Of a stretch of 64,000 bases of DNA, positions 37,070 through 64,000 are shown one piece after another (position 1 is the first letter of the stretch; every line of letters starts with the position of its first letter). Below the pieces are notes generated by a model that worked only from the letters and a program-made list of their open reading frames with translations, was not told the DNA's origin and made no database searches. Origin of the DNA: Eledone cirrhosa (lineage: Eukaryota); the NCBI GenBank assembly GCA_964016885.1, contig OZ024740.1, positions 1,426,001 to 1,490,000 of the forward strand, given 5' to 3'. The position numbers were made by a program, and so were the translations under genes.

Positions 37070-40000
37070 GTGAGATGTGTGTGTACTGCACCTTACCACT
37101 ACGTGAGATGTGTGTGTACTGCACCTTACCACTACGTGAGATGTGTGTGTACTGCGCCTTACCACTACGTGAGATGTGTGTGTACTGCACCTTACCACTA
37201 CGTGAGATGTGTGTACTGCAGCTTACCACTACGTGAGATGTGTGTGTACTGCACCTAACCACTACGTGAGATGTGTGTACTGCAACTTACCACTACGTGA
37301 GATGTGTGTGTACTGCACCTTACCACTACGTGAGATGTGTGTGTACTGCACCTTACCACTACGTGAGATGTGTGTGTACTGCACCTTACCACTACCTGAG
37401 ATGTGTGTGTACTGCACCTTACCACTACGTGAGATGTGTGTACTGCAGCTTACCACTACGTGAGATGTGTGTGTACTGCACCTTACCACTACGTGAGATG
37501 TGTGTGTACTGCACCTTACCACTACGTGCGATGTGTGTGTACTGCACCTTACCACTACGTGAGATGTGTGTGTACTGCACCTTACCACTACGTGAGATGT
37601 GTGTGTACTGCAGCTTACCACTACGTGAGATGTGTGTGTACTGCACCTTACCACTACGTGAGATGTGTGTGTACTGCACCTTACCACTACGTGAGATGTG
37701 TGTGTACTGCACCTTACCACTACGTGAGATGTGTGTGTACTGCACCTTACCACTACGTGAGATGTGTGTACTGCACCTTACCACTACGTGAGATGTGTGT
37801 GTGGTGCACCTTACCACTACGTGAGATGTGTGTGTACTGCACCTTACCACTACGTGAGATGTGTGTGTACTGCACCTTACCACTACGTGAGATGTGTGTA
37901 CTGCAGCTTGCCACTACGTGAGATGTGTGTGTACTGCACCTTACCACTACGTGAGATGTGTGTGTACTGCACCTTACCACTACGTGAGATATGTGTGTAC
38001 TGCACCTTACCACTACGTGAGATGTGTGTGTACTGCACCTTACCACTACGTGAGATGTGTGTACTGCAGCTTACCACTACGTGAGATGTGTGTGTACTGC
38101 ACCTTACCACTACGTGAGATGTGTGTACTGCACCTTACCACTACGTGAGATGTGTGTGTACTGCACCTTACCACTACGTGAGATGTGTGTGTACTGCACT
38201 TACAACTACGTGACATGTGTGTGTACTGCACCTTACCACTACGTGAGATGTGTGTACTGCACTTACCACTACGTGAGATGTGTGTGTACTGCACCTTACC
38301 ACTATGTGACATGTGTGTGTACTGCACCTTACCACTACGTGAGATGTGTGTGTACTGCACCTTACCACTACGTGAGATGTGTGTGTACTGCACCTTACCA
38401 CTACGTGAGATGTATGTGTACTGCACTTACCACTACGTGAGATGTGTGTGTACTGCACCTTACCACTACGTGAGATGTGTGTGTACTGCACCTTACCACT
38501 ACGTGAGATGTATGTGTACTGCACTTACCACTACGTGAGATGTGTGTGTACTGCACCTTACCACTACGTGAGATGTGTGTGTACTGCACCTTACCACTAC
38601 GTGAGATGTATGTGTACTGCACTTGCCACTACGTGAGATGTGTGTGTACTGCACCTTACCACTACGTGAGATGTGTGTGTACTGCACCTTACCACTACGT
38701 GAGATGTATGTGTACTGCACCTTACCACTACGTGAGATGTATGTGTACTGCACTTACCACTACGTGAGATGTGTGTGTACTGCACCTTACCACTACGTGA
38801 GATGTGTGTGTACTGCACCTTACCACTACGTGAGATGTGTGTACTGCACCTTACCACTACGTGAGATGTGTGTACTGCATCTTACCACTACGTGAGATGT
38901 GTGTGTACTGCACCTTACCACTACGTGAGATGTGTGTACTGCACTTACCACTACGTGAGATGTGTGTGTACTGCACCTTACCACTACGTGAGATGTGTGT
39001 GTACTGCACCTTACCACTACGTGAGATGTGTGTGTACTGCACCTTACCACTACGTGAGATGTGTGTGTACTGCACCTTACCACTACGTGAGATGTATGTG
39101 TACTGCACTTACCACTACGTGAGATGTGTGTGTACTGCACCTTACCACTACGTGAGATGTGTGCGTACTGCACCTTACCACTACGTGAGATGTGTGCGTA
39201 CTGCACCTTACCACTACGTGAGATGTGTGTGTACTGCACCTGACCACTACGTGAGATGTGTGCGTACTGCACCTTACCACTACGTGAGATGAGTGTGTAC
39301 TGCACCTTACCACTACGTGAGATGTATGTGTACTGCACTTACCACTACGTGAGATGTGTGTGTACTGCACCTTACCACTACGTGAGATGTGTGTGTACTT
39401 CACCTTACCACTACGTGAGATGTGTGCGTACTGCACCTTACCACTACGTGAGATGTGTGCGTACTGCACCTTACCACTACGTGAGATGTGTGTGTACTGC
39501 ACCTTACCACTACGTGAGATGTGTGTGTACTGCACCTTACCACTACGTGAGATGTGTGTGTACTGCACCTTACCACTACGTGAGATGTGTGTGTACTGCA
39601 CCTTACCACTACGTGAGATGTGTGTGTACTGCACCTTACCACTACGTGAGATGTGTGTGTACTGCACCTTACCACTATGTGATATGTGTGTGTACTGCAC
39701 CTTACCACTACGTGAGATGTCTGTGTACTGCACCTTACCACTATGTGAGATGTGTGTGTACTGCACCTTACCACTACGTGATATGTGTGTGTACTGCACC
39801 TTACCACTATGTGATATGTGTGTGTACTGCACCTTACCACTACGTGAGATGTGTGTGTACTGCACCTTACCACTACGTGAGATGTGTGTACTGCACCTTA
39901 CCACTACATGAGATGTGTGTGTACTGCACCTTACCACTACGTGAGATGTGTGTAATGCACCTTACCACTACGTGAGATGTATGTGTACTGCACCTTACCA

Positions 40001-43000
40001 CTATGTGAGATGTGTGTACTGCACCTTACCACTACGTGAGATGTGTTTACTGCACCTTACCACTACGTGAGATGTGTGTGTACTGCACCTTACCACTACG
40101 TGAGATGTGTGTGTACTGCACCTTACCACTACGTGAGATGTGTGTACTGCACCTTACAACTACGTGAGATGTGTGTGTACTGCACCTTACCACTACGTGA
40201 GATGTGTGTACTGCACCTTACCACTACGTGAGATGTGTGTACTGCACCTTACAACTACGTGAGATGTGTGTGTACTGCACCTTACCACTATGTGAGATGT
40301 GTGTGTACTGCACCTTACCACTGCGTGAGATGTGTGTACTGCACCTTACAACTACGTGAGATGTGTGTGTACTGCACCTTACCACTACGTGAGATGTGTG
40401 TGTACTGCACCTTACCACTACGTGAGATGTGTGTGTACTGCACCTTACCACTACGTGAGATGTGTGTGTACTGCACCTTACCACTACGTGAGATGTGTGT
40501 ACTGCACCTTACAACTACGTGAGATGTGTGTGTACTGCACCTTACCACTACGTGACATGTGTGTACTGCACCTTACAACTGCGTGAGATGTGTGTGTACT
40601 GCACCTTACGACTACATGAGATGTGTGTGTACTGCACCTTACCACTACGTGAGATGTGTGTACTGCACCTTACCACTACGTGAGATATGTGTATTGCACC
40701 TTCCCACTACATGAGATGTGTGTGTACTGCACCTTACCACTACGTGAGATGTGTTTGTACTGCACCTTACCACTACGTGAGATGTGTGTGTACTGCACCT
40801 TACCACTACGTGAGATGTGTGTACTGCACCTTAACACTACGTGAGATGTGTGTACTGCACCTTGCCACTACGTGAGATGTGTGTATTGCACCTTACCACT
40901 ACATGAGATGTGTGTGTACTGCACCTTACCACTATGTGAGATGTGTGTGTACTGCACCTTACCACTACGTGAGATATATGTATTGCACCTTACCACTACA
41001 TGAGATGTGTGTGTACTGCACCTTACCACTATTTGAGATGTGTGTACTGCACCTTACAACCACGTGAGATGTGTGTGTACTGCACCTTACCACTACGTGA
41101 GATGTGTGTGTACTGCACCTTACCACTACGTGAGATGTGTGTGTACTGTACCTTACCACTACGTGAGATGTGTGTGTACTGCACCTTACCACTACGTGAG
41201 ATATGTTTACTGCACCTTACCACTACGTGAGATGTGTGTACTGCACCTTACCACTACGTGAGATGTGTGTACTGCACCTTACCACTACGAGAGATGTGTG
41301 TGTACTGCACCTTACCACTACGTGAGACGTGTGTACTGCACCTTAACACTATGTGAGACGTGTGTACTGCACCTTACCACTACGTGAGATGTGTGTACTG
41401 CACCTTACCACTACGTGAGATGTGTGTGTACTGCACCTTACCACTACATGAGATGTGTGTGTACTGCACCTTACCACTACGTGAGATGTGTGTGTACTGC
41501 ACCTTACCACTACGTGAGATGTGTGTACTGCACCTTACCACTATGTGAGATGTTTGACTGCACCTTACCACTATGTGAGATGTGTGTGTACTGCACCTTA
41601 CCACTACGTGAGATGTGTGTGTACTGCACCTTACCACTACGTGAGATGTGTGTGTACTGCACTTTACCACTACGTGAGATGTGTGTATTGCACCTTACCA
41701 CTACATGAGATGTGTGTGTTCTGCACCTTCCCACTACGTGAGATGTGTGTGTACTGCACCTTACCACTATGTGAGATGTGTGTACTGCTACTTACAACTA
41801 TGTGAGATGTGTGTGTACTGCACCTTACCACTACGTGAGATGTGTGTGTACTGCAACTTACCACTACGTGAGATGTGTGTGTACTGCACCTTACCACTAC
41901 GTGAGATGTGTGTGTACTGCACCTTACCACTACGTGAGATGTCTGTGTACTGCACCTTACCACTACGTGAGATGTATGTGTACTGCACCTTACCACTACG
42001 TGAGATGTGTGTACTGCACCTTACCACTACGTGAGATGTGTGTACTGCACCTTAACACTACGTGAGATGTGTGTACTGCACCTTACAACTACGTGAGATG
42101 TGTGTGTACTGCACCTTACCACTACGTGAGATGTGTGTGTACTGCACCTTACCACTAAGTGAGATGTGTGTACTACACCTTGCCACTACGTGAGATATGT
42201 TTACTGCACCTTACCACTACGTGAGATGTGTGTACTGCACCTTACCACTACGTGAGATGTGTGTGTACTGCACCTTACAACTACGTGAGATGTGTGTGTA
42301 CTGCACCTTACCACTACGTGAGATGTGTGTGTACTGCACCTTACCACTACGTGAGATGTGTGTGCTGCACCTTACCACTACGTGAGATGTGTGTACTGCA
42401 TCTTACCACTATGTGAGATGTATGTGTACTGCACCTTACCACTACGTGAGATGCGTGTGTACTGCACCTTACCACTACGTGAGATGTGTGTGTACTGCAC
42501 CTTACCACTACATGAGATGTATGTGTACTGCACCTTACCACTACGTGAGATGTATGTGTACTGCACCTTACCACTACGTGAGATGTGTGTGTACTGCACC
42601 TTACCACTACGTGAGATGTATGTACTGCACCTTACCACTACTTGAGATGTATGTGTACTGCACCTTACCGCTACGTGAGATGTGTGTGTACTGCACCTTA
42701 CCACTATGTGAGATGTGTGTGTACTGCACCTTACCACTACGTGAGATGTGTGTACTGCACCTTACCACTACGTAAGATGTGTGTAATGCACCTTACCACT
42801 ACGTGAGATGTGTGTGTACTGCACCTTACCACTACTTGAGATGTGTTTACTGCACCTTACAACTACGTGAGATGTGTGTACTGCATCTTACCACTACGTG
42901 AGATGTGTGTACTGCATCTTACCACTACGTGAGATGTGTGTGTACTGCACCTTACCACTACGTGAGATGTGTTTACTGCACCTTACCACTATGTGAGATG

Positions 43001-44516
43001 TGTGTGTACTGCACCTTACCACTACGTGAGTTGTGTGTGTACTGCACCTTACCACTACGTGAGATGTGTGTGTATTGCACCTACCACTACGTGAGATGTA
43101 TGTGTACTGCACCTTACCACTACTTGAGATGTGTGTACTGCACCTTACCACTACGTGAGATGTTTGTGTACTGCACCTTACCACTACGTGAGATGTGTGT
43201 ACTGCACCTTACCACTACGTGAGATGTGTGTGTACTGCAGCTTACCACTACTTGAGATGTGTGTACTGCACCTTACCACTATGTGAGATGTGTGTGTACT
43301 GCACCTTACCACTATGTGAGATGTGTGTGTACTGCACCTTACCACTACGTGAGATGTGTGTACTGCACCTTACCACTATGTGAGATGTGTGTGTAATGCA
43401 CCTTACCACTACGTGAGATGTGTGTGTACTGCACCTTACCACTACGTGAGATGTGTGTACTGCACCTTACTACTACGTGAGATGTGTGTGTACTGCAACT
43501 TACCACTACGTTAGATGTATGTACTGCACCTTACCACTACGTGAGATGTGTGTGTACTGCACCTTACCACTATGTGAGATGTGTGTGTACTGCACCTTAC
43601 CACTACGTGAGATGTGTGTACTGCACCTTACCACTACGTGAGATGTGTGTGTACTGCACCTTAACACTACGTGAGATGTGTGTGTACTGCACCTTACCAC
43701 TACGTGAGATGTGTGTGCACTGCACCTTACCACTACGTGGTATGTGTGTACTGCACCTTACCACTACATGAGATGTATGTGTACTGCACCTTACCACTAC
43801 GTGAGATGTGTGTGTACTGCACCTTACCACTACGTGAGATGTGTGTACTGCACCTTACCACTACGTGAGATGTGTGTGTACTGCAGCTTACCACTACGTG
43901 AGATGTGTGTGTACTGCACCTTACCACTACGTGAGATGTTTGTGTACTGCACCTTACCACTACGTGAGATGTGTGTACTGCACCTTACCACTACGTGAGA
44001 TGTGTGTGTACTGCACCTTACCACTACGTGAGATGTGTGTACTGCACCTTACCACTACGTGAGATGTGTGTGTTCTGCAGCTTACCACTACATGAGATGT
44101 TTGTGTACTGCACCTTACCACTACGTGAGATGTATGTGTACTGCACTTTACCACTACGTGAGATGTGTGTACTGCAGCTTACCAATACGTGAGATGTTTG
44201 TGTACTGCACCTTACCACTATGTGATATGTGTGTGTACTGCACCTTACCACTACGTGAGATGTGTGTGTACTGCACCTTACAACTACGTGAGATGTGTGT
44301 GTACTGCACCTTACCACTACGTGAGATGTGTGTACTGCACCTTACCACTACATGAGATGTGTGTGTACTGCAACTTACCACTACGTGAGATGTGTGTGTA
44401 CTGCACCTTACCACTACGTGAGATGTGTGTGTACTGCACCTTACCACTACGTGAGATGTGTGTGTACTGCACCTTACCACTACGTGAGATGTGTGTGTAC
44501 TGCACCTTACCACTAC
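37070..44516. repeat. 33-bp tandem minisatellite, about 230 copies with 30-33 bp variants
   Basis: Unit GTGAGATGTGTGTGTACTGCACCTTACCACTAC. Length variants arise mainly from internal (TG)n slippage. Confidence 0.99.
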
Positions 44517-44604: not shown

Positions 44605-45355
44605 GGTGGATTGGCAGTATAGGTAGAGGGTCTGACACCATGCTAGGTGGTGGACTGGCAGTATAGGTAGGGGGTCTGACACCATGTTAGGTGGTGGATT
44701 GGTAGTATTGGTAGTGGGTCTGACACCATGTTAGGTTGGTGGATTGGCAGTATTGGTAGAGGGTCTGACACCATGTTAGGGTGGTGGATTAGTAGTATTG
44801 GTAGAGGGTCTGACACCATGTTAGGGTGGTGGATTGGTAGTATTGGTAGAGGGTCTGACACCATGTTAGGGTGGTGGATTAGTAGTATTGGTAGAGGGTC
44901 TGACACCATGGTAGGGTGGTGGATTGGCAGTATTGGTAGAGGGTCTGACACCATGCTAGGGTCGTGGATTGGTAGTATTGGTAGAAGGTCTGACACCATG
45001 GTACGTGATGGATTGGTAGTATTGGTAGAGGGTCTGACACCATGGTAGGTGGTGGATTCGTAGTATTGGTAGAGGGTCTGACACCATATTAGGTGGTGGA
45101 TAGGTAGTATTGGTAGAGGGTCTGACGCCATGTTAGGGTGGTGGATTGGCAGTATTGGTAGAGGGTCTGACACCATGGTAGGGTGGTGGATTGGCAGTAT
45201 TGGTAGAGGGTCTGACGCCATGTTAGGTGGTGGATTGGTAGTATAGGTAGAGGGTCTGACACCATGGTAGGGTGGTGGATTGGCAGTATTATTAGAGGGT
45301 CTGACGCCATGTTAGGGTGGTGGATTGGCAGTATCGGTAGAGGGTCAGATGCCAT
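44605..45355. repeat. 44-45-bp minisatellite, about 17 copies, derived from a SINE head
   Basis: Unit GGTGGATTGGCAGTATTGGTAGAGGGTCTGACACCATGTTAGGGT matches the SINE 5' end at 47322. Confidence 0.92.
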
Positions 45356-47837: not shown

Positions 47838-49100
47838 CTAGGGCGGGTAACATTCCCGAGATCCATGGACGAGTTCTCTCCAGCGGTCTCTGTCCCTCAT
47901 TATCGCTGCCATGTCCTGCGTCTCCAACAGACCAGTGTCTGTCCTTAGGATATCAACATACTTTAACCTCGGTCTTCCTCTTCCAGTGTGTGCATGTAGG
48001 GGCTCCCACAGGAGCACTGAGTGCAATGTCAACTCTGGATGTCGGTGACCATGTCCAGCTAACCTCAGTCTCCTCTGTGTCACTTTTGAGCTGACTTTTG
48101 GGAAGCTCCCATACAGCTCTGAGTTCTTCATCCTCAGTGAATACTGATTAATGTTCAGAGCCATCTTCAGCATTCTCGTGTAGAACCCATCCACCATCTG
48201 AGTGAGTTTCTTGGTCCAAGTCTCAAGCCCATACAGTAGCACAGACTCCACTGTAGCAATGAAGAGATGGGTCATCAGGTCCTTAGGAAGGTCCAACTTC
48301 CACACGAATCTAAAACTGTGGCACACCATCCAGGCTTTGCTCTCCCTCTCAACCAGATCATCCTCTATATTCCCAATCTTTGCTCCCCGATACAGGAAGT
48401 CCTCAACCAACTCTAGCGGCTTCCTGCCTACATTCATAATCTTCTCCGGCTTCTTAATGTTCTTCACCTTCTGCATCAAATCCTCTGCCTCCTTCACTGT
48501 GTTTGTCACCAGAACTATGTTGTTAACAAATTCAGCATCTGATATCTTTTTAGCCTTAACTCTCCTACTCTGAGCCGGTTTTACAGTAAAGCCCAAGTCC
48601 TGGTGTTTCTCCATTACAAGGCACATACAATAGTCCACTGCAATGATAAAAAGGTAGGGAGCCAATGTATCTCCCTGGAGCACTCCAGCCAGCATCTCAA
48701 AGAACTCCATCATCCCATCAGGTGTAATGACTTGGGCTTTGGTCTTGGTGTAGAGCAGTGATATCAGGTCCACTATCCTCTTGGGGATTCCATAAGCCTG
48801 TAAGATCTTCATCAGGCAGTGACAGTCTACAGAATCAAAGGCCCTCCTAAAGTCAATGAAAACCATGACCGCAGGAAGGCTCTTTGCTCTAGCTCCCTCT
48901 AATATCCTCCTCAGGATGTGACTGGTGGTTGATCTTCCCCCTCTGAAGCTATTCTGGTTGTCCCTGAGCTTCTCCATCTCAAGCTGGATCCTGTTAAGAA
49001 TCATCCTGTTGAGGGTCTTTGCCACAAGTGACGTCAGTGAGATCCCCCTGTAGTTGTTGGTGTTAGAGAGATCTCCCTTCTTTGGCACTGGGAGGAGGTT
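47838..49100 (-). mobile_element. 5'-truncated RTE-like LINE with a degenerate reverse transcriptase ORF (416 aa)
   Basis: Motifs PKKGDL..NYRGISL, FIDFRRAFDSV, GVLQGDTLAPYLF and RRLRLAGH..GRPR. The catalytic YADD is replaced by FVNN. Confidence 0.9.
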
Positions 49101-49232
49101 ACTGATCCTCCACTGATTCGGGGCAACTCCTTTCTCCAGTGCCAGTACTCCAGGATATCATGATTGATGACAACAACAATAATAGAAAAATATGGAGGCA
49201 ATATTATATTGCAATATTTCTTTTTAATGTGA

Positions 49233-49272: not shown

Positions 49273-49603
49273 TCATCATCATCATCATTTTAGGTCCGCT
49301 TTTCCCTGCTTGCAAGGGTGGGACGAGAACTGATTCTCGCCTGATTTCTACAGCTGGATGCCCTTCCTAACACCAACCTCATTTACAGTGAGTGCTGGGT
49401 GCTTTTTTTGCTGTGGCACCTCCACGACCACTTGCATGATAGGGACCCCAGTCCCTATCATCTCATTTCTACAGCTGAGTAATCTGGAGCAATGTGAAAT
49501 AAAGTGTCTTGCTCAAGGAAACAACACATCACCCGGTCTGAGAATTGAACTCACAACCTTTTGATTGCAAGGCCAATGCTCTAACCACTAAGCCATGTGC
49601 CTC
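49271..49603 (-). mobile_element. tRNA-derived SINE with an RTE-like tail
   Basis: Minus-strand GGCACATGGCTTAGTGGTTAGAGC..GAGTTCAATTC head. Shares GGATGCCCTTCCTAACACCAACC with the RTE 3' UTR and ends in (ATG)n. Confidence 0.8.
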
Positions 49604-49935
49604 GGGCTTAGTGGTTAGAGCATTGACCTTGCAATCGAAAGGTTGTGAGTTCAATTCTCATACTGGGTGATGTGTTGTTTCCTTGAGCAAGACACTTTAT
49701 TTCACATTGCTCCAGTTTACTCAGCTGTAGAAATGATAGGGACTGGGGCCCATATCATTCCACTGCAAAGTGGTCGTGGAGGTGCCATGGCAAAAAAGCA
49801 CCCAGCACTCACTGTAAATGAGGTTGGTGTTAGGAAGGGCATCCAGCTGTAGAAATCAAGCCAGAATCAGTTCCCGTCCCACCCTTGCAAGCAGGGAAAA
49901 GTGGACATAAAATGAAATGATGATGAAATGATGAT
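49604..49935 (+). mobile_element. tRNA-derived SINE with an RTE-like tail, head-to-head with the previous copy
   Basis: Near reverse complement of 49271-49603. Confidence 0.8.
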
Positions 49936-50889
49936 ATATATCCTAAATGGACGGTAGTCCGTTTAGTAATATTGTTGTGGTCGTGTTTTCATTGGCAATC
50001 GTCTGTTTACGACAGTACAGCGCGGCTCTACTTTATTTAACTGAGATAAAACTTATATGAGCATGAACAGTAGAACATTACGCATCTTTTGGCTTAAAAA
50101 TCTAGAAATTTGGTCCAGCGGGAAAAAGTTTATAATCAAAGTTTGCTGATAAATCTTGTGTTCAAGTGAGTGAGTAGTAAGCGTGACGCTAGGGGAGGTA
50201 ATCCAGAAATGACGAATTATTTTCGGCGGAACTCTTGTGATTGTGATTACGTTAGTCAAATGTAGTCAAATCGCCGAATCCCCTCCTCCTAATTGACTAC
50301 GTCATTTCTAACGGCCCTACTTGCGTCAGTGTGAAACATTACTTCACTTTTCACTGCTAAAATGCTTTTTAAATACTTCGTTAAAAATTTATGTTTATTA
50401 TCAAAGCTATTTTTTGTACCAATCTATCAATAGTTTGCGAAAATATAGGTAAACATGTGAATTACATTTTTTTTAATCTCATCGATCGCTTTGTCGCACC
50501 GACTGTGACACTGTCTGCTGTCTGTCTGACTGACACCTTTGTCGGACCGACACCTCTGTTCAAGCGGACAACTTTGTGTCACTGACACCTTTGTTCGTGC
50601 CGGCATCTCTGCAAAACACCGATGACAACAACCAGACCAAAATTTCACTTCATTCTTCATTCTTCTTCAAGACCGATCGCCGACCGATCGTATCGGTTAC
50701 TCTTCATATACCAGGTATTCAACAGATAGTTTGCACTTCTAGTATTATTAAGAGTCGTGCGATTTTTTGTACCGATAGGTGTGAATAGTGCGCTATATTT
50801 TTGTACCGATAGGTGCGAATAGTGCGATAGGTGTGAATGGTGTACAATATTTTCTGAGATTTGCATCCACTAATTTCGCTTAATTAAAA

Positions 50890-51685
50890 ATGATGTTTCG
50901 CGGCTTTTTGATCGGCTTATTCATTTTTTCCATGGCACGGAAATGGAGTATTTCCATTTCGAATCAAAACTTTTCACTAAAATCGAGCAATTGGACTGAT
51001 CAAATTCACATTCATGCCAGTTTTTACAAATCCATAATTAGAAATGTGGCGAAATCGAATGACCAGAAGGTATAAAAATATTAATTCAAATGTATTTACT
51101 TATCATACCAACAAAAATACTTAGATATTTTGTATACCTGGGGCCCGTCAGGGCCAGGTAATGTTAATCGCCAACATTGTTATCTGTTGTCCTTTTGTGA
51201 AAGTATTGGTGGTTCATGTCGGCTCTAATGATCTGAATCCTCGTCGCACCGTTGGCACTACAAAGCTGTGCAAAGTAATACAATAATTTTTGCCCAAGTA
51301 TTTTTTATTAATCATTTATTTGTAAATTAAGGACAAAGTGCCCATTCGAGGCACAAAACCGGAAAAACAGGGGAAGAGTCTCTTTGCAAGGCTACAGAAA
51401 ATAGCGGAAAAGCACCACTGTACACCCATTTTCTACTGTGGTGTCATTCCACGTCCACAAAGTGTAATTGAAAATAAAAATGACTTGGGCAAGAGAAATT
51501 CTCGTTTGGAAAAGTTTAATTACTGCATGAAAGAAATGATTCAAAAATTGAACTTGCCCAATCTTCACAACATTGAAAATTGGTCAAAATTTGACAAATC
51601 TGACTTCAAACCAGATATGATTCATTTGAACAATGTTGGAAATCTTAAATTGACACAAATTTTTGCCAATGTTTTTGCCACCTGA
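50890..51685 (+). CDS. spliced SGNH/GDSL hydrolase-like gene (exons 50890-51069, 51125-51274, 51332-51685; about 227 aa)
   Basis: Two phase-0 GT-AG introns (55 and 57 nt) join SIIRNV (block I-like), IPGA (block II), VVHVGSNDL (block III), GVIPR and PDMIHLNNVG (block V DxxH). AATAAA at about 51723. Confidence 0.75.
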
Positions 51686-51865
51686 TCCTTGTTCTATGGC
51701 TGACTGACTAATTTTGTGACTTAATAAAATGTCATCATACTAGTAATGCACAATGGTCATTTTTAAATTTAAATTTTATTAAATAGTTGTTGCTTGCATT
51801 GCCTTAAAATAGTAACAAGAATGTACACATACTTTTTAAAAATACATCATTATCAGTCAAATCAG

Positions 51866-52225
51866 TCAAATGTCACTAAAAGCCAGGTGGTCGATAACAA
51901 CTTCTATAAGATTAGTTACATGCTCACACATTGGATCACCTCTCATCAATGGCATTGGGTGTCTGAGATAATCGTGGAGATAACTGATGAAATCACAAAT
52001 GAAGTGATGGTCTTCCAGTGTGAACAACTCCCTATATCCATTGATATATGTGATGTCTTCCGATTCATAGGTGCATTTTATGAGGAACTCCATGCATCCG
52101 ATTTTCAGTGATTCAATGGGCATTTTATCAGAGTTGATAAGGTATTTGATGACGTTTTGCTTTGTAAATAAATTGGAGAAAATCACTGCAGTCAAAGTCA
52201 TTTCTTTGCATGGGTTTTTGTCCAT
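51866..52225 (-). CDS. orphan ORF of 119 aa (MDKNPCKEMT...HLAFSDI)
   Basis: Non-repetitive open frame. A 44-nt GTAAGT...TTTTAG intron (52270-52227) ends just before the ATG. Minus-strand AATAAA at about 51775-51780. Confidence 0.5.
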   Translation of the reverse strand: MDKNPCKEMTLTAVIFSNLFTKQNVIKYLINSDKMPIESLKIGCMEFLIKCTYESEDITYINGYRELFTLEDHHFICDFISYLHDYLRHPMPLMRGDPMCEHVTNLIEVVIDHLAFSDI

Positions 52226-52499
52226 TCTAAAAAAGTTAAAATGATAAAGTATTACTACTATATAACTTACATCTATTGTTGTAACACCATTGAAATGCAC
52301 AAGTTTCACCAATTCACTATTATGCACTAATCATCTCAAATGCATTCATGATTTACTAGCTTTGTCATTAAGCCAGTTGCCTCAACTAGATTGCAATTAT
52401 ACTCAAAAGAACTTTAAAATGTCAATCACTTGTCAGTAATTCACTATGATCATTTAATTATTAGATAGTTGTTGCTTGCATTGCCTTAAAAAATAGTAG

Positions 52500-53593
52500 A
52501 CCAGATAGAAAAATGCGTACAGCAAAAAAAAGTAATATTGTTGGAATATAAACCTTTAAAAATACAGGACAAGAAACTAAAATAAAACTTTAAAAGAATA
52601 GGACAAGAAACTAAGATAAAACTTTAAAAGAATAGGACAAGAAACTAAGATAAAACTTTAAAGAATTGGACAAGAAATAAAAAATTTTACAATAATATTA
52701 GTGGCAAAATTTTTTTATTCGTTTCCTGTGCTATACCCCAGTATCTTCTTGATTAGTGCATAATAATTTTCATGCTCTCATTGTGCGTTGCCCCTGAGCG
52801 GTTGGTTCTGGTTGGGGTTGGTTGGCTGATCAGTTCTGCTCCGTCAGAATGACCATTGCAAGAAGAATTGGCCGATGCAGCTGCAGGTCTCCTCCAAGAA
52901 TGCACTTCTGGTCCCGAAACACCAGACGAAGATGGAGAAGACGACCGGGACAAGATGTCGACTCTGACCACCGACTACGGCACCTCCCTCAACCACCGGT
53001 CCTCCCTCCCTCTGTCCCGTCATCCTCCAGTCCTCCTGCTCCCCCTTCCTGTACCAGAAAGCTGTGGCACGCATTCATCTGGACTGCTGGACTTGAACTC
53101 AAGGACAAGATGCAAGGAGAAGATGGACAGGTTGGTCAAGATCAAGGATGAGCGGGACAACAAGACCGTCCGCTGCTGCTCAAGATCTGTGCTCATGGGC
53201 CCATGGGTCCATTCACATTATGCATGACACATGAGGCGTGTCGCCGAATGATGAAATAGGGGTATGGTTATGGCCTAATTGGTGTTCAAACCAAGATCAA
53301 ATGATCCCCCGGTCTGACGACGACCTCTGAATGTGGAACCCAGAGCCTCTGAATGTGGAACTCGATTTTTTACCAATAAAAATTTTGCCACTAATATTAT
53401 TGTAAAATTTTTTTATTTCTTGTCCAATTCTTTAAAGTTTTATCTTAGTTTCTTGTCCTATTCTTTTAAAGTTTTATCTTAGTTTCTTGTCCTATTCTTT
53501 TAAAGTTTTATTTTAGTTTCTTGTCCTGTATTTTTAAAGGTTTATATTCCAACAATATTACTTTTTTTTGCTGTACGCATTTTTCTCTCTGGT
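52500..53593. repeat. 220-bp inverted repeat (52500-52719 / 53375-53593) with internal 34-bp tandem units
   Basis: Arms are near-exact reverse complements. GGACAAGAAACTAAGATAAAACTTTAAAAGAATA occurs about 3.5 times per arm. Confidence 0.95.
52856..53227 (+). CDS. possible ORF in the inverted-repeat spacer
   Basis: 123-codon frame starting at TTG with an acidic stretch PETPDEDGEDDRDK. GC-rich, with AATAAA at 53375. No recognisable domain. Confidence 0.25.
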   Translation: MQEELADAAAGLLQECTSGPETPDEDGEDDRDKMSTLTTDYGTSLNHRSSLPLSRHPPVLLLPLPVPESCGTHSSGLLDLNSRTRCKEKMDRLVKIKDERDNKTVRCCSRSVLMGPWVHSHYA

Positions 53594-53623: not shown

Positions 53624-56600
53624 ATCATCATCATCATTTAACGTCCATCTTCCACGCTAGCATGGGTCTGGATGGGAGTTGTCCCACTTGAGGCAAGATT
53701 GGTTGTCTTGCTCAGGACTGTCTGGCGAGTTTTCTACGGCTGGATGCCCTTCCTAACACCAACCACATTTACAGTGTGGACTGGGGGGTTTTTACCGTGT
53801 TACCAACACGGCCACATTACACCATGGACTGTGTGTTTTTTTGTCGTGACACCTACACGACCACATTTATTTAGGACTGGATGTTGTGGTACCAACATAG
53901 CTTTACATCGAAAGGTGTGGTGTAGATGGCAGTAGGGGTAGTGGGACGGGGGTGTATTTTGGTTAAGAGGTGCCTACTGACTGTAGGTTTCGCTTTGTAC
54001 TTAGGCAAGGCAGGTCTTCTGTACTACTACGTAGCGCCAAAGATCTCGGACTAGTAACATTGTCTTGGAGCGGTGTAAGTGTGTGAGGTCGGATTTTATC
54101 AAGTCGTCCCAGGTTTTTCTGGGTCTGCCTACTCCGTAGCTACCGTCTATTTTGATCGCCCTGCACTTTTTTATATAGTTGTCATCTTTCATGCGCATCA
54201 CGTGACCATACCAACGTAGTCTTCTCTCGAGTAAACAGCATCTGATCCCTCTTATTCCTAATTTCTCACTTAGTTCATTGATTCTTTGCCGTTCACGTAT
54301 ATTACTATTACACATCCAATGGAGCATGCAAGCTTCGTTCTTCTCCAATCGGCATAGATCCTCTGCATACACTGCCATGTAACATTGCTGTTCATATGCA
54401 GGCATCATACAGCCTGCCTTTTATTTTTAGAGAGAACCCTTTAGCGGCCAATAGTGGTATAAGCTCTCTGAACTTTTTCCATCCCATTCTGACTCTAGCT
54501 ACTGTACTTTCGGAGCACCCTCCACCACTGCTGATTTTGTCACCCAGGTAACGGAAGGTGTCCACTATTTCTATAGAACCATCTGGGCAATGGAATGAGC
54601 TAGTATTCTGTGGGCATTTGCTGCTACTTATTGCACCAGAGCACCAGCCACATATAAAATCTATATCTTACTTAGCTTACCTGTGATCCCACTACATCTT
54701 TTATGCACCCATACTTTACATTTGGGACATAAAATGGAGTTTCTGCCTACTTCTTTCCTACACACTGAGCATGGCCATTTCCCAGATGGGACCAGTGCCC
54801 TATTCTCCTTCCTACATATTAGGACTTTAGTCTTAGACAAGTTAACTTTAAGGCCTTTTGATTCTTGGCCATGCTTCCATGTTTGGAATTTCTTCTCTAG
54901 TTCAGCCATTGATTCGGCTATGAGCGTTAGATCATATGCGTATAGAAGTTCCCATGGGCAGCCGGTCATGCACTCCACCGTTATAGCTTGGAGGGAGATA
55001 AGGACGGAGCCCTGATGAACACCAACTTTTACGCTAAACTCTTCACTATATTCGTTGTTAATTCTAACCTTGCTGACTGTTTCTTTATACATGGCTTGTA
55101 TAGCTCTCACAAGCCATTCATCAACACCTAGTTTTCTGAGAGCCCACCAGATAATGGAGCGGAGGACTCTGTCAAAGGCTTTCTCCAGGTCTACAAAAGC
55201 TAAGTAGAGGGGTTTACTTTTAGCTAGGTACTTCTCCTGTAGTTGTCGTACAATGAAAAGAGCATCTGTGGTACTTTTACCTGACACAAACCCGAACTGC
55301 ATTTCATCTAGATCAATTCGCTCTCTGATTAGTTGCGCTATAACTCTTTCTGTGACCTTCATGACCTGGTCGATTAATTTAATGCCTCTATAGTTTCCCC
55401 TATCTATGGCATCTCCTTTACCCTTGTAGCAGTTAAGGAGGATGCTGCTACGCCAGTCCTTTGGTACGACCCCATTCTGTATAACTTGGTTTACTATCTG
55501 GGTGACCATAGTGTGTCCCACCATTCCAGATGCTTTCAGCATTTCAGCAACTATTTCCGAAGGCCCAGCCGCCTTGCCCGTCTTCATATCTTTGATTGTC
55601 TTACTTATTATACTACCTTCAACTTGCACTGCTGGTCTCTCTATTGGGTCGATGTGGGGGAGACTGTCTTTCTCCCATTTATTCTCCTCATTTAGTAGCC
55701 TTTCATAGTGACACTTCCAAGCTACCTTCTTATCAGCATCAGTGATGGTAAGTACACCATCATCATTAAGGACACACTTCTCCCCGACAATATCATGGTT
55801 CTCCTTGACAATTGCCTAGCAATCCTGAACACCTCACGTTTTTGGTCCTCGCGTTGTAGAACATGCTTGAACTTTCTTTCCTCTGCTTCCCTTCTTGCAA
55901 AGTACATTTGTCTCCTTGCTTCCCTCCTGGCCACTTGATAGTCTTCTCTACTTCCCCCATCCCGCCATACTTTCCAAGCCTGCTTTTTGGCCTTGATCGA
56001 CTCCTCCACCTTACTGTTCCACCACCTCCTGCCTATAGGTCTCTCCTCCTGCCTATAGGTCTCTCCTCCTGCCTATAGGTCTGCTCCAGCCACAGATTTC
56101 ATCTGTCGCCTTTAGCAGGTTAGCTTTCAGGAATTCCCACTGTTCCTCTATATTGTACGACTCTAATTGCTCTTCCTTACTGTCAAAAGCATCAAGTAAT
56201 ATGCTTTTAAATTCATTACTGGTTGTGGGGTCCTTTAACTTCCATATTTTTCTCCTGAGGATAGTCCTCTTCTGTTGTCGAGTACGTCTCGTCCTGACTA
56301 TGAGGTCGCTAATTATGAGTCTATGTTGGGAGGTGCATTCTTCATGGGGGAGGGATTTAGTGTTTACAACAGACACTCTATCACGTCTTCTGGTAAGGAT
56401 ATAATCTACCTGGCTGGTATGTTCCCCTGATCTATAGGTGATCAAGTGATTGTCTCGTTTTTTGAAGTTAGTGTTACAGATAGTTAGGTTATTTGCGTCG
56501 CAGAATTCCAGGATTCTGGAGCCTTCCTCATTTCTAGTACCAAACCATAGCCTCCATGGATTCTGTCATAGCCATCACAATGTTGTCCAACGTGACCATT

Positions 56601-61402: not shown

Positions 61403-64000
61403 AAATATGGAAATAAAAGGGTTAGTCACATTCTTTACCTGTCTAACAGATACATTTACAGAATGTCTGACCTGTAGAAATATGGAAATAAAAGGGTTAG
61501 TCACATTCTTTACCTGTCTAACAGATACATTTACAGAATGTCTGACATGTAGAAATATGGAAATAAAAGGGTTAGTCACATTCTTTACCTATCTAACAGA
61601 TACATTTACAGAATGTCTGACCTGTAGAAATATGGAAATAAAAGGGTTAGTCACATTCTTTACCTGTCTAACAGATACATTTACAGAATGTCTGACCTGT
61701 AGAAATATGGAAATAAAAGGGTTAGTCACATTCTTTACCTGTCTAACAGATACATTTACAGAATGTCTGACATGTAGAAATATGGAAATAAAAGGGTTAG
61801 TCACATTCTTTACATATCTAACAGATACATTTACAGAATGTCTGACCTATAGAAATATGGAAATAAAAGTGTTAGTCACATTCTTTACCTGTCTAACAGA
61901 TACATTTACAGAATGTCTGACCTGTAGAAATATGGAAATAAAAGGGTTAGTCACATTCTTTACCTGTCTTACAGATACATTTACAGAATGTCTGACCTGT
62001 AGAAATATGGAAATAAAAGGGTTAGTCACATTCTTTACCTGTCTAACAGATACATTTACAGAATGTCTGACCTGCAGAAATATGGAAATAAAAGGGTTAG
62101 TCACATTCTTTACCTGTCTAACAGATACATTTACAGAATGTCTGACCTGTAGAAATATGGAAAAAAAAGGGTTAGTGACATTCTTTACCTGTCTAACAGA
62201 TACATTTACAGAATGTCTGACCTGTAGAAATATGGAAATAAAAGGGTTAGTCACATTCTTTACCTGTCTAACAGATACATTTACAGAATGTCTGACATGT
62301 AGAAATATGGAAATAAAAGGGTTAGTCACATTCTTTACCTGTCTTACAGATACATTTACAGAATGTCTGACCTGTAGAAATATGGAAATAAAAGTGTTAG
62401 TCACATTCTTTACCTGTCTAACAGATACATTTACAGAATGTCTGACCTGTAGAAATATGGAAATAAAAGGGTTAGTCACATTCTTTACCAGTCTAACAGA
62501 TACATTTACAGAATGTCTGACCTGTAGAAATATGGAAATAAAAGGGTTAGTCACATTCTTTACCTGTCTAACAGATACATTTACAGAATGTCTGACCTGT
62601 AGAAATATGGAAATAAAAGGGTTAGTCACATTCTTTACCTGTCTAACAGATACATTTACAGAATGTCTGACCTGTAGAAATATGGAAATAAAAGGGTTAG
62701 TCACATTCTTTACCTGTCTAACAGATACATTTACAGAATGTCTGACCTGTAGAAATATGGAAACAAAAGGGTTAGTGACATTCTTTACCTGTCTAACAGA
62801 TACATATACAGAATGTCTGACCTGTAAAAATATGGAAATAAAAGGGTTAGTCACATTCTTTACCTGTCTAACAGATACATTTACAGAATGTCTGACCTGT
62901 AGAAATATGGAAATAAAAGGGTTAGTCACATTCTTTACCTGTCTAACAGATACATTTACAGAATGTCTGACCTGTAGAAATATGGAAACAAAAGGGTTAG
63001 TGACATTCTTTACCTGTCTAACAGATACATATACAGAATGTCTGACCTGTAAAAATATGGAAATAAAAGGGTTAGTCACATTCTTTACCTGTCTAACAGA
63101 TACATTTACAGAATGTCTGACCTGCAGAAATATGGAAATAAAAGGGTTAGTCACATTCTTTACCTGTCTTACAGATACATTTACAGAATGTCTGACCTGT
63201 AGAAATATGGAAATAAAAGGGTTAGTCACATTCTTTACCTGTCTAACAGATACATTTACAGAATGTCTGACCTGTAGAAATATGGAAACAAAAGGGTTAG
63301 TGACATTCTTTACCTGTCTAACAGATACATATACAGAATGTCTGACCTGTAAAGATATGGAAATAAAAGGGTTAGTCACATTCTTTACCTGTCTAACAGA
63401 TACATTTACAGAATGTCTGACCTGTAGAAATATGGAAATAAAAGGGTTAGTCACATTCTTTACCTGTCTAACAGATACATTTACAGAAAGTCTGACATGT
63501 AGAAATATAGAAATAAAAGGGTTAGTCACATTCTTTACCTGTCTTACAGATACATTTACAGAATGTCTGACCTGTAGAAATATGGAAATAAAAGGGTTAG
63601 TCACATTCTTTACCTGTCTAACAGATACATTTACAGAATGTTTGACCTGTAGAAATATGGAAACAAAAGGGTTAGTGACATTCTTTACCTGTCTAACAGA
63701 TACATATACAGAATGTCTGACCTGTAAAAATATGGAAATAAAAGGGTTAGTCACATTCTTTACCTGTCTAACAGATACATTTACAGAATGTCTGACCTGT
63801 AGAAATATGGAAATAAAAGGGTTAGTCACATTCTTTACCTGTCTAACAGATACATTTACAGAATGTCTGACCTGTAGAAATATGGAAATAAAAGGGTTAG
63901 TCACATTCTTTACCTGTCTTACAGATACATTTACAGAATGTCTGACCTGTAGAAATATGGAAATAAAAGGGTTAGTCACATTCTTTACCTGTCTAACAGA
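61403..64000. repeat. 75-bp tandem satellite, about 35 copies, running off the window end
   Basis: Unit AAATATGGAAATAAAAGGGTTAGTCACATTCTTTACCTGTCTAACAGATACATTTACAGAATGTCTGACCTGTAG. Confidence 0.99.

Follow-up and report, generated by a model that had tools for sequence, protein, structure and literature searches.

A non-autonomous HLE2-clade Helitron with a long fold-back at its 3' end in Eledone cirrhosa

We analysed a 64,000-nt stretch of the Eledone cirrhosa genome (GenBank assembly GCA_964016885.1, contig OZ024740.1, forward-strand positions 1,426,001 to 1,490,000; G000:C1:1426001-1490000 within the 3.0-Gb assembly), referred to here as the window, in which one island had been predicted from sequence to be a new cargo-carrying mobile element. 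The island is almost certainly a non-autonomous element derived by deletion from a 12.6-kb rolling-circle transposon, a Helitron belonging to the HLE2 clade. It is real and belongs to a known Helitron kind, HLE2, rather than to a new class of element; its unusual part is a long fold-back at the 3' end. As a whole, it is probably best explained as an HLE2 derivative that receives its RepHel protein in trans, inserts between A and T, and employs the fold-back as a 3' cis signal.

The whole copy, 3.65 kb long, lies on the + strand at 49941-53592, begins 5'-TC, ends CTGG-3', and is inserted within a TA run, between an A and a T of the host. Its boundary depends on one ambiguous T: the interval originally proposed, 49942-53593, is obtained when that T is put right, and 49941-53592 when it is put left. 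The terminal features were all found where they had been predicted: a 5' hairpin on the + strand at 49943-49966 (10-bp stem, GGTA loop, one C>T in the stem of the window copy); a 13-nt asymmetric inverted repeat, AGTAATATTGTTG, at 49965-49977 on the same strand, which overlaps the base of the hairpin; the reverse complement of this repeat, at 53550-53562; and a further occurrence at 52531, which is part of the fold-back's internal arm rather than a separate feature. The repeats fall within the 11-18 nt range of HLE2 terminal inverted repeats, and those at the 5' and 3' ends can pair. In a sister family, described below, the hairpin carries a compensatory G-C to C-G change.

This element is abundant. 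The 33-nt left end matched the genome exactly 316 times as compared to 0 times for a reversed control, a count therefore beyond chance, and a looser pattern matched 533 times. The left 2555 nt and right 1111 nt gave 729 and 646 genome candidates, respectively, of which 40 each were scored; 36 of the 40 scored for the left part were near end-to-end at 95-100% identity (one being the window itself), and near-full matches to the two parts, at 93-100% identity, adjoin at the same loci. A 23-nt 3' motif matched 926 times, mostly as inverted pairs ~1.1 kb apart among the first 100 matches listed. Both ends are present together in 54 distinct copies, as expected if the left hairpin and right inverted repeat belong to one family, and family copies are 95-99% identical. 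Three copies (L097, L119, L142) are nested within other copies of the same family.

The 54 copies with both ends define the insertion site. In all of them the base preceding CCTAAA is T and the base following the 3' end is T, while the base before the first T is A in 53; the 3' end itself reads CTGG in 51, CTAG in two and CTGA in one, and the CTGG/CTAG difference between the two families remains within CTRR. Taking the element as T-CC...CTRR, we joined the flanks and collected spanning paralogues for 20 copies among the fetched loci. Five informative insertions had paralogous empty sites with no gap at the junction (L008, 14 of 16 hits; L057, 14 of 14; L062, 14 of 17; L079, 14 of 14; L103, 12 of 13), and exactly one T must therefore travel with the element; for two insertions in A/T runs (L009, L052) the hits were mostly gapped, and several others in TA runs were uninformative. 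These alignments are consistent with insertion at A^[TC...CTGG]T without target duplication, which by sequence is the same as AT^[C...CTGGT] or a 1-bp duplication of T. The form A^[TC...CTRR]T is the canonical Helitron1 signature (PMC11417382, PMC5876387).

Longer copies with the same termini, which the original prediction had proposed to look for, do encode a Rep/helicase protein. From the first 100 left ends listed we retrieved 60 loci, passing over those already seen; three of the loci (L097, L106, L108) encode on the + strand the 5' part of a RepHel with DUF6570, Helitron_like_N and an HUH motif, which identifies the left hairpin as the 5' end. The 5' ends of the longer RepHel-coding copies are 96-98% identical to that of the window element. 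In a 12.6-kb master of the same family (G000:C28:42936072-42948698, minus strand), window element positions q1-1104 (96-98% identity) are followed by RepHel and then by q1090-3655. RepHel-coding copies thus share the island's ends, a point examined as a possible refutation of its identity, and the island's place as a non-autonomous rolling-circle element on the Helentron/HLE2 side is borne out by co-occurring ends, empty sites and these longer partners.

A sister family of 11.2-kb masters (C13:18885150-18896356 and a copy on C10) encodes a RepHel of 1904 aa plus 507 aa, one frame split by a single TAA, containing DUF6570 (E 9e-18, above cut-off), Rep, PIF1 and UCH; the own-family masters align to its last residues. 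Pfam found no AP endonuclease (Exo_endo_phos) in the sister-family RepHel, so the element is not a Helentron in the strict sense. DUF6570 marks HLE2, and UCH is enriched in HLE2 subgroups c and d, according to the sections of PMC11417382 consulted. In a quick tree of 38 rows, rooted at the midpoint and containing no named HLE2 reference, the masters' proteins were separated from six Reps of HLE1 type encoded by this genome and were placed with DUF6570-bearing proteins; they carry the motifs TLSCAE and EYQQRGAPHIH, as compared to EFQKRGLPHAH in the HLE1 type. The element is a member of HLE2 by its protein and a Helitron by its working. A genome search with PF14214, in which 150 of 3704 candidates were scored, did not reach the RepHel partner, and the six candidates examined were HLE1-type; an alignment search for longer RepHels, limited to 4021-5000 aa, returned none.

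Two features of Rep proteins were noted in passing. Near the RepHel N-terminus there is a 2A-like motif, LLIIGCVELNPGP (L106:1520-1580; L111, open reading frame (ORF) from 1550), in which C replaces the usual D; P0010 carries GDVESNPGP, and no E.NPGP motif was present on the + frames of 80 metagenomic loci. Separately, matches to Reps of HLE1 type are spaced 100-190 kb apart along one strand at G000:C20:3.5-5.2 Mb and C27:13.0-15.5 Mb, which suggests a very long tandem unit.

The fetched left-end copies range from 1.0 to 6.8 kb as a series of deletions. Across the 60 loci, five junctions occur more than once (in 20, 9, 8, 2 and 2 copies), and both fold-back arms are kept in all five, as compared to five deletions that strike the internal arm, each unique. 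The recurrent types keep at least 261-274 nt of the 5' end (49941-50215, + strand) together with a 1.24-kb 3' segment that includes both arms (52357-53592, + strand). Both arm motifs were detected within 10 kb at 38 of the 60 loci, the internal one only at 11, the terminal one only at five and neither at six. The 50214-52357 deletion is also found in contigs of three other organisms, A, B and C, which cover 29, 28 and 16, respectively, of 30 bins when the flank bins are counted. Four 3.6-kb derivatives of the sister family (L240, L245, L246, L248) have two or three tandem 5' termini.

Deletion also explains the island's cargo. No Rep is visible by homology in the window, as had been stated; positions 50890-51033 (+ strand) nevertheless preserve the start of the RepHel ORF, an N-terminal stub truncated by a deletion whose junction is 51033/51034. 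There the deletion joins RepHel ...FYKS in frame to ...IIRNV of a spliced SGNH/GDSL esterase remnant at 51034-51685 (+ strand; exons 51034-51069, 51125-51274 and 51332-51685). Where the master reads IVGDSIIRNV, the G-D of GDS has thereby been lost and the nucleophile motif is broken. The two predicted introns (51070-51124 and 51275-51331, + strand) are GT-AG, phase 0, and 55 and 57 nt long. The joined exons carry PGA, HVGSND and DMIHLN, which we take to be motifs of SGNH genes; exon 3 matches Lipase_GDSL_3 at E 0.004, below cut-off, and GDSL clusters at 0.90-0.92 in Atlas, and no longer homologues of the exon were found. Of the two or three compact spliced genes originally proposed, then, one predicted spliced gene is supported, and it is a broken chimera. 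Its frame is open in 18 of 23 copies, with a ratio of nonsynonymous to synonymous polymorphism (pN/pS) of ~0.86 in 19 copies, and so shows no sign of constraint. The cargo is a RepHel start fused to an SGNH-esterase remnant that is evolving near neutrally. The masters have in addition two upstream NADAR-like exons (profile positions 4-67 and 82-116; E 0.003-0.04, below cut-off). Neither NADAR nor SGNH was matched in the HELIANO supplement, where PHD and UCH were, and no hammerhead or other RNA family came near its gathering score inside the element.

The internal foldback of the original prediction is real, and proved to be a 215-bp inverted copy of the 3' end itself. The internal arm (52500-52714, minus strand) includes CTGG-T, the 13-nt repeat (52531-52543) and 34-bp tandem units; a 663-bp spacer (52715-53377, no strand assigned) separates it from the terminal arm (53378-53593, + strand), which holds 34-bp tandem units, the 3' inverted repeat, a short hairpin at 53569-53579 and CTGG at 53589-53592. 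In the window the arms align over 192 nt at 98% plus 36 nt at 100%, or in another alignment at 99% over 215 nt. Whereas the short 3' hairpin, with its 3-bp stem, has a folding energy of -1.2 kcal/mol, the fold-back of the last 1.1 kb reaches -311 kcal/mol. An eroded duplicate of the sequence directly upstream of the internal arm lies at 51776-51860 (+ strand).

Comparing 70 own-family and six sister-family arm pairs revealed that the two arms have evolved together. In the sister family the internal arm sits at an identical position and is preceded by the same sequence, a left flank that is constant and orthologous between the families. Arms are 98-99% alike within a copy and ~89-90% between families, and the spacers of the two families do not align; over the outer ~94 arm columns, seven substitutions and a 2-nt indel separate the families, and at every one of these differences the two arms of a family match each other. 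The window spacer is unrelated to the sister spacer, and its ORFs have no Pfam match. It is inverted in the C28 master, of master length, which is the one such case in 90 spacer-bearing rows (duplicates among them), and in none of 46 among L051-L110; recombination or a misassembly could account for this single inversion. We also considered, and rejected, a parvovirus-like rolling-hairpin flip-flop of the ends: the 5' loop is inverted in six copies against 316 in which it is not, and the spacer in the one row just described. The sister spacer (L112:671-1285) contains a 205-aa Cys/His-rich ORF with a weak PHD-finger lead (Atlas 0.82, recognition below threshold; none in Pfam).

More distant relatives have a comparable layout. 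A metagenome scan, in which 80 of 160 loci were kept, yielded RepHels 30-42% identical. Inverted repeats lie downstream of RepHel in two of them (L212, 211 bp at 100% with a 596-nt spacer; L196, 304 bp at 99% with a 542-nt spacer), and a ~90-nt motif taken from their arms is strong in 12 loci, downstream of RepHel in 11 of these, usually in first-arm orientation and often near a contig end. The motif's E-values are circular, since the profile was built from those same sites; the sites themselves came from position-blind BLAST. With a near-duplicate dropped, the motif is downstream in 10 of 11 loci, as compared to 43% of flank bases (p = 0.0016, ignoring relatedness). At the contig start of one relative (L192:1-187) is a ~185-nt hairpin with part of the downstream arm motif, possibly that relative's 5' end. 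P0001, a RepHel-UCH protein 44% identical, is filed under a Gammaproteobacteria metagenome-assembled genome and is likely a misbinned eukaryotic contig.

How the island moves can be considered by analogy with Helraiser, whose RepHel introduces a nick in the + strand at the 5' T, displaces that strand and cleaves after CTRR; the ends are joined into a circle and the + strand is transferred to an AT site (PMC5876387, sections consulted). The island was likely copied in the same manner by its family's RepHel acting in trans: this protein would nick at the 5' T, peel off the + strand and cut directly after CTRR, whereupon the ends would circularise and the + strand would go into an AT site. The last 1.1 kb of the displaced strand may fold into the 215-bp stem, replacing the nearly absent short terminator hairpin, and the fold-back likely aids termination of each copying round. 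Pairing of 5' and 3' repeats was proposed as an end signal by Bao and Jurka (PMC3627910). Occasional repair or template switching across the stem in active masters would keep the arms alike and would sometimes invert the spacer.

That the fold-back forms part of the 3' cis signal is nonetheless a tentative reading that falls a little short of probable. Nearly as likely is a passenger fold-back, one that arose long ago when the 3' end inserted into the element, or was duplicated there, in inverted orientation, and that is homogenised by occasional gene conversion between the inverted repeats and unneeded for transposition. The internal arm ends in CTGG followed by T, like an insertion; composite ends through self-insertion have been proposed for Fusarium Helitrons (PMC5148889, sections consulted); and the recurrent junctions sampled number five only. 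Against a passenger stand the fold-back's occupation of the same position in two families whose spacers can no longer be aligned, the distant relatives with a parallel layout, and the recurrent deletions, each of which retains 1.24 kb of 3' DNA yet needs only ~270 nt of 5' DNA.

Several observations weigh against our overall account, and the first two of them also favour a passenger. Firstly, the arms show no per-copy correction: copy-private changes in the 70 own-family pairs comprise one shared and 67 private to an arm (28 and 39), and the number of 34-bp units is often unequal between arms. Because such changes are unshared between arms of the same copy, homogenisation must be rare, and presumably takes place in active masters. 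Secondly, four copies (L056, L081, L084, L094) have lost the internal arm and have a clean 3' end, a loss that would look the same before or after insertion. Thirdly, no intact autonomous copy was present among the masters examined: both sister masters have the in-frame TAA in the helicase region, and own-family masters, which have no stop at that site, are frameshifted elsewhere. Fourthly, exact pattern matching found no end-to-end (head-to-tail) junction in the assembly, nor was there one among the joints listed in other organisms' contigs. Finally, the metagenomic motif is upstream in one locus and is present in only 10 of 20 loci with at least 2.5 kb downstream; its profile has no match to the own-family arms, and most metagenomic relatives have OTU-like rather than UCH C-termini. 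The metagenomic layout is a parallel to the fold-back rather than a proven homologue of it. We consider it unlikely, if not negligibly so, that an animal HLE2 lineage replaced its terminator with a 200-300-bp inverted 3' copy that is copy-corrected in transposition, required in cis, furnished with an exchangeable, invertible cargo slot, and conserved at ~33% RepHel identity.

The original prediction had read the island on the minus strand, as a HINE/DINE-1-like Helentron derivative in which the hairpin is the 3' terminator and RepHel is reversed. The A^T target is symmetric and does not fix the strand, the sole strong short hairpin sits at the left end, and reversed RepHels occur in some Helitron2/Helentron families (PMC3627910, PMC4067079, sections consulted). 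By contrast, RepHel is on the + strand, which begins exactly TC and ends CTRR; no endonuclease domain lies at the C-terminus of the sister RepHel; and subterminal inverted repeats of HINEs are 2-4 nt from the 5' end with a TT target (PMC4067079, sections consulted), unlike the island's AT target and its repeat at 30 nt on the minus reading (24 nt on the + reading). Because of these differences in strand, ends, target and repeat distance, the minus-strand reading is improbable.

Less probable still, and largely refuted, is that the right 1.1 kb is an independent foldback or miniature inverted-repeat (MITE)-type transposon with terminal inverted repeats, nested at another element's end. Taken alone, this segment does resemble such an element, with 215-bp arms and internal tandem units, and in annotation would risk passing for one. 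However, no free-standing fold-back occurred among 16 loci chosen for having no listed 5' end, and upstream element sequence was still present in all six arm pairs so chosen; both families have the same constant, orthologous flank to the left of the internal arm, target duplication is absent, and the 13-nt repeat is common to the Helitron 5' end. The chance that the island is a piece of a giant retroelement or large DNA virus is negligible, as full-length copies between the same ends encode RepHel, and the masters examined showed, in their long ORFs and Pfam matches, no reverse transcriptase, integrase, PolB or capsid. SGNH and 2A-like motifs are also found in retroelements and viruses. NADAR, too, has been reported in retrotransposons (PMC12477816, sections consulted).

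Among published systems, of which the sections consulted are compared here, the element is most similar to the proto-Helentron of Phytophthora infestans and HLE2-reverse. Like the island, the proto-Helentron has a DUF6570 HLE2-type RepHel without endonuclease (PMC4067079; PMC11417382), a CTAG-type 3' end, A^T insertion without duplication, and a 5' stem-loop upstream of a 12-13-nt left repeat. It differs in starting with TT rather than 5'-TC, in a left repeat 3.6 kb away rather than overlapping the hairpin, in its oomycete host, and in carrying SET and TIR rather than the UCH, NADAR and SGNH found here. These sections do not mention a long 3' fold-back, and the likeness is one of features rather than shown common ancestry; the HELIANO authors found the proto-Helentron in 0 of 404 species outside Phytophthora (PMC11417382). 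The HLE2-reverse elements of Fusarium oxysporum, FoHeli3-5 and FoHeli1-2, share a 5' hairpin with a weak or absent 3' hairpin, an asymmetric inverted repeat of 13-16 nt located 20-40 nt in from the 3' terminus and, in some copies, multiple 5' termini, here seen in the sister family (PMC5148889; PMC11417382). By contrast, their terminal sequences are TGCCT...CTCCTGT and TCAG...ATTTT, and no long inverted 3' duplication is described in those sections. HLE2 subgroups c and d, mostly of lungfish and axolotl, likewise combine DUF6570 with a C-terminal UCH and no endonuclease (PMC11417382), a likeness by domains alone, with no terminal structures compared.

Other Helitrons are less similar. Helitron2 (PMC3627910) also has a 5' T, a 5' hairpin involving part of the inverted repeat, a 3' repeat ~30 nt from the end and a compensatory hairpin change, whereas its 5' repeat is 0-2 nt from the end rather than 24 nt in (starting at nt 25), its hairpins are at both ends while the island's 3' hairpin is almost absent, and its target is TTTT^T/C rather than AT. 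Helitron1/HLE1 (Helraiser, PMC5876387) shares the TC...CTRR ends and A^T insertion without duplication; the island differs in having a RepHel of another clade (DUF6570), inverted repeats and a 5' hairpin, and no strong short 3' hairpin. DINE-1/HINE elements (PMC4067079) likewise derive from HLE2 and are non-autonomous; their subterminal inverted repeats are also 13 nt long, and they too have a stem-loop at one terminus. The canonical HLE2 structure has T^T insertion and a stem-loop after the right repeat, unlike the A^T insertion and minimal 3' hairpin here. Literature searches, with subscription papers outside them, yielded no description of a long co-evolving 3' fold-back in Helitrons, and the sections consulted of PMC6431247 and PMC13282606 added nothing on it; as Repbase and Dfam lay outside the comparison, the family may have an entry there already.

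The pairing of Helitron1-type ends with an HLE2 enzyme was reported earlier for the Phytophthora proto-Helentron; its occurrence outside Phytophthora, with TC/CTRR/AT ends of the HLE1 type, bears on whether the proto-Helentron ends are ancestral or convergent. The published experiments consulted on end recognition and the stop of copying concern an HLE1 element. For HLE2, this young high-copy family, with its natural deletion series and near-open master ORF, makes the 5' hairpin, 13-nt repeats and fold-back directly testable.

The island's surroundings are largely repetitive. Positions 1-29839 of the window, ~30 kb, consist of a 44-bp satellite with higher-order units, and satellites with 33-, 45- and 75-bp units occupy 37070-44516, 44605-45346 and 61403-64000. 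Decayed LINE reverse-transcriptase-like sequence, judged by eye, lies on the minus strand at 48500-49150 and 53960-55000. Directly left of the element, an inverted pair of tRNA-like SINEs forms a palindrome at 49290-49930.

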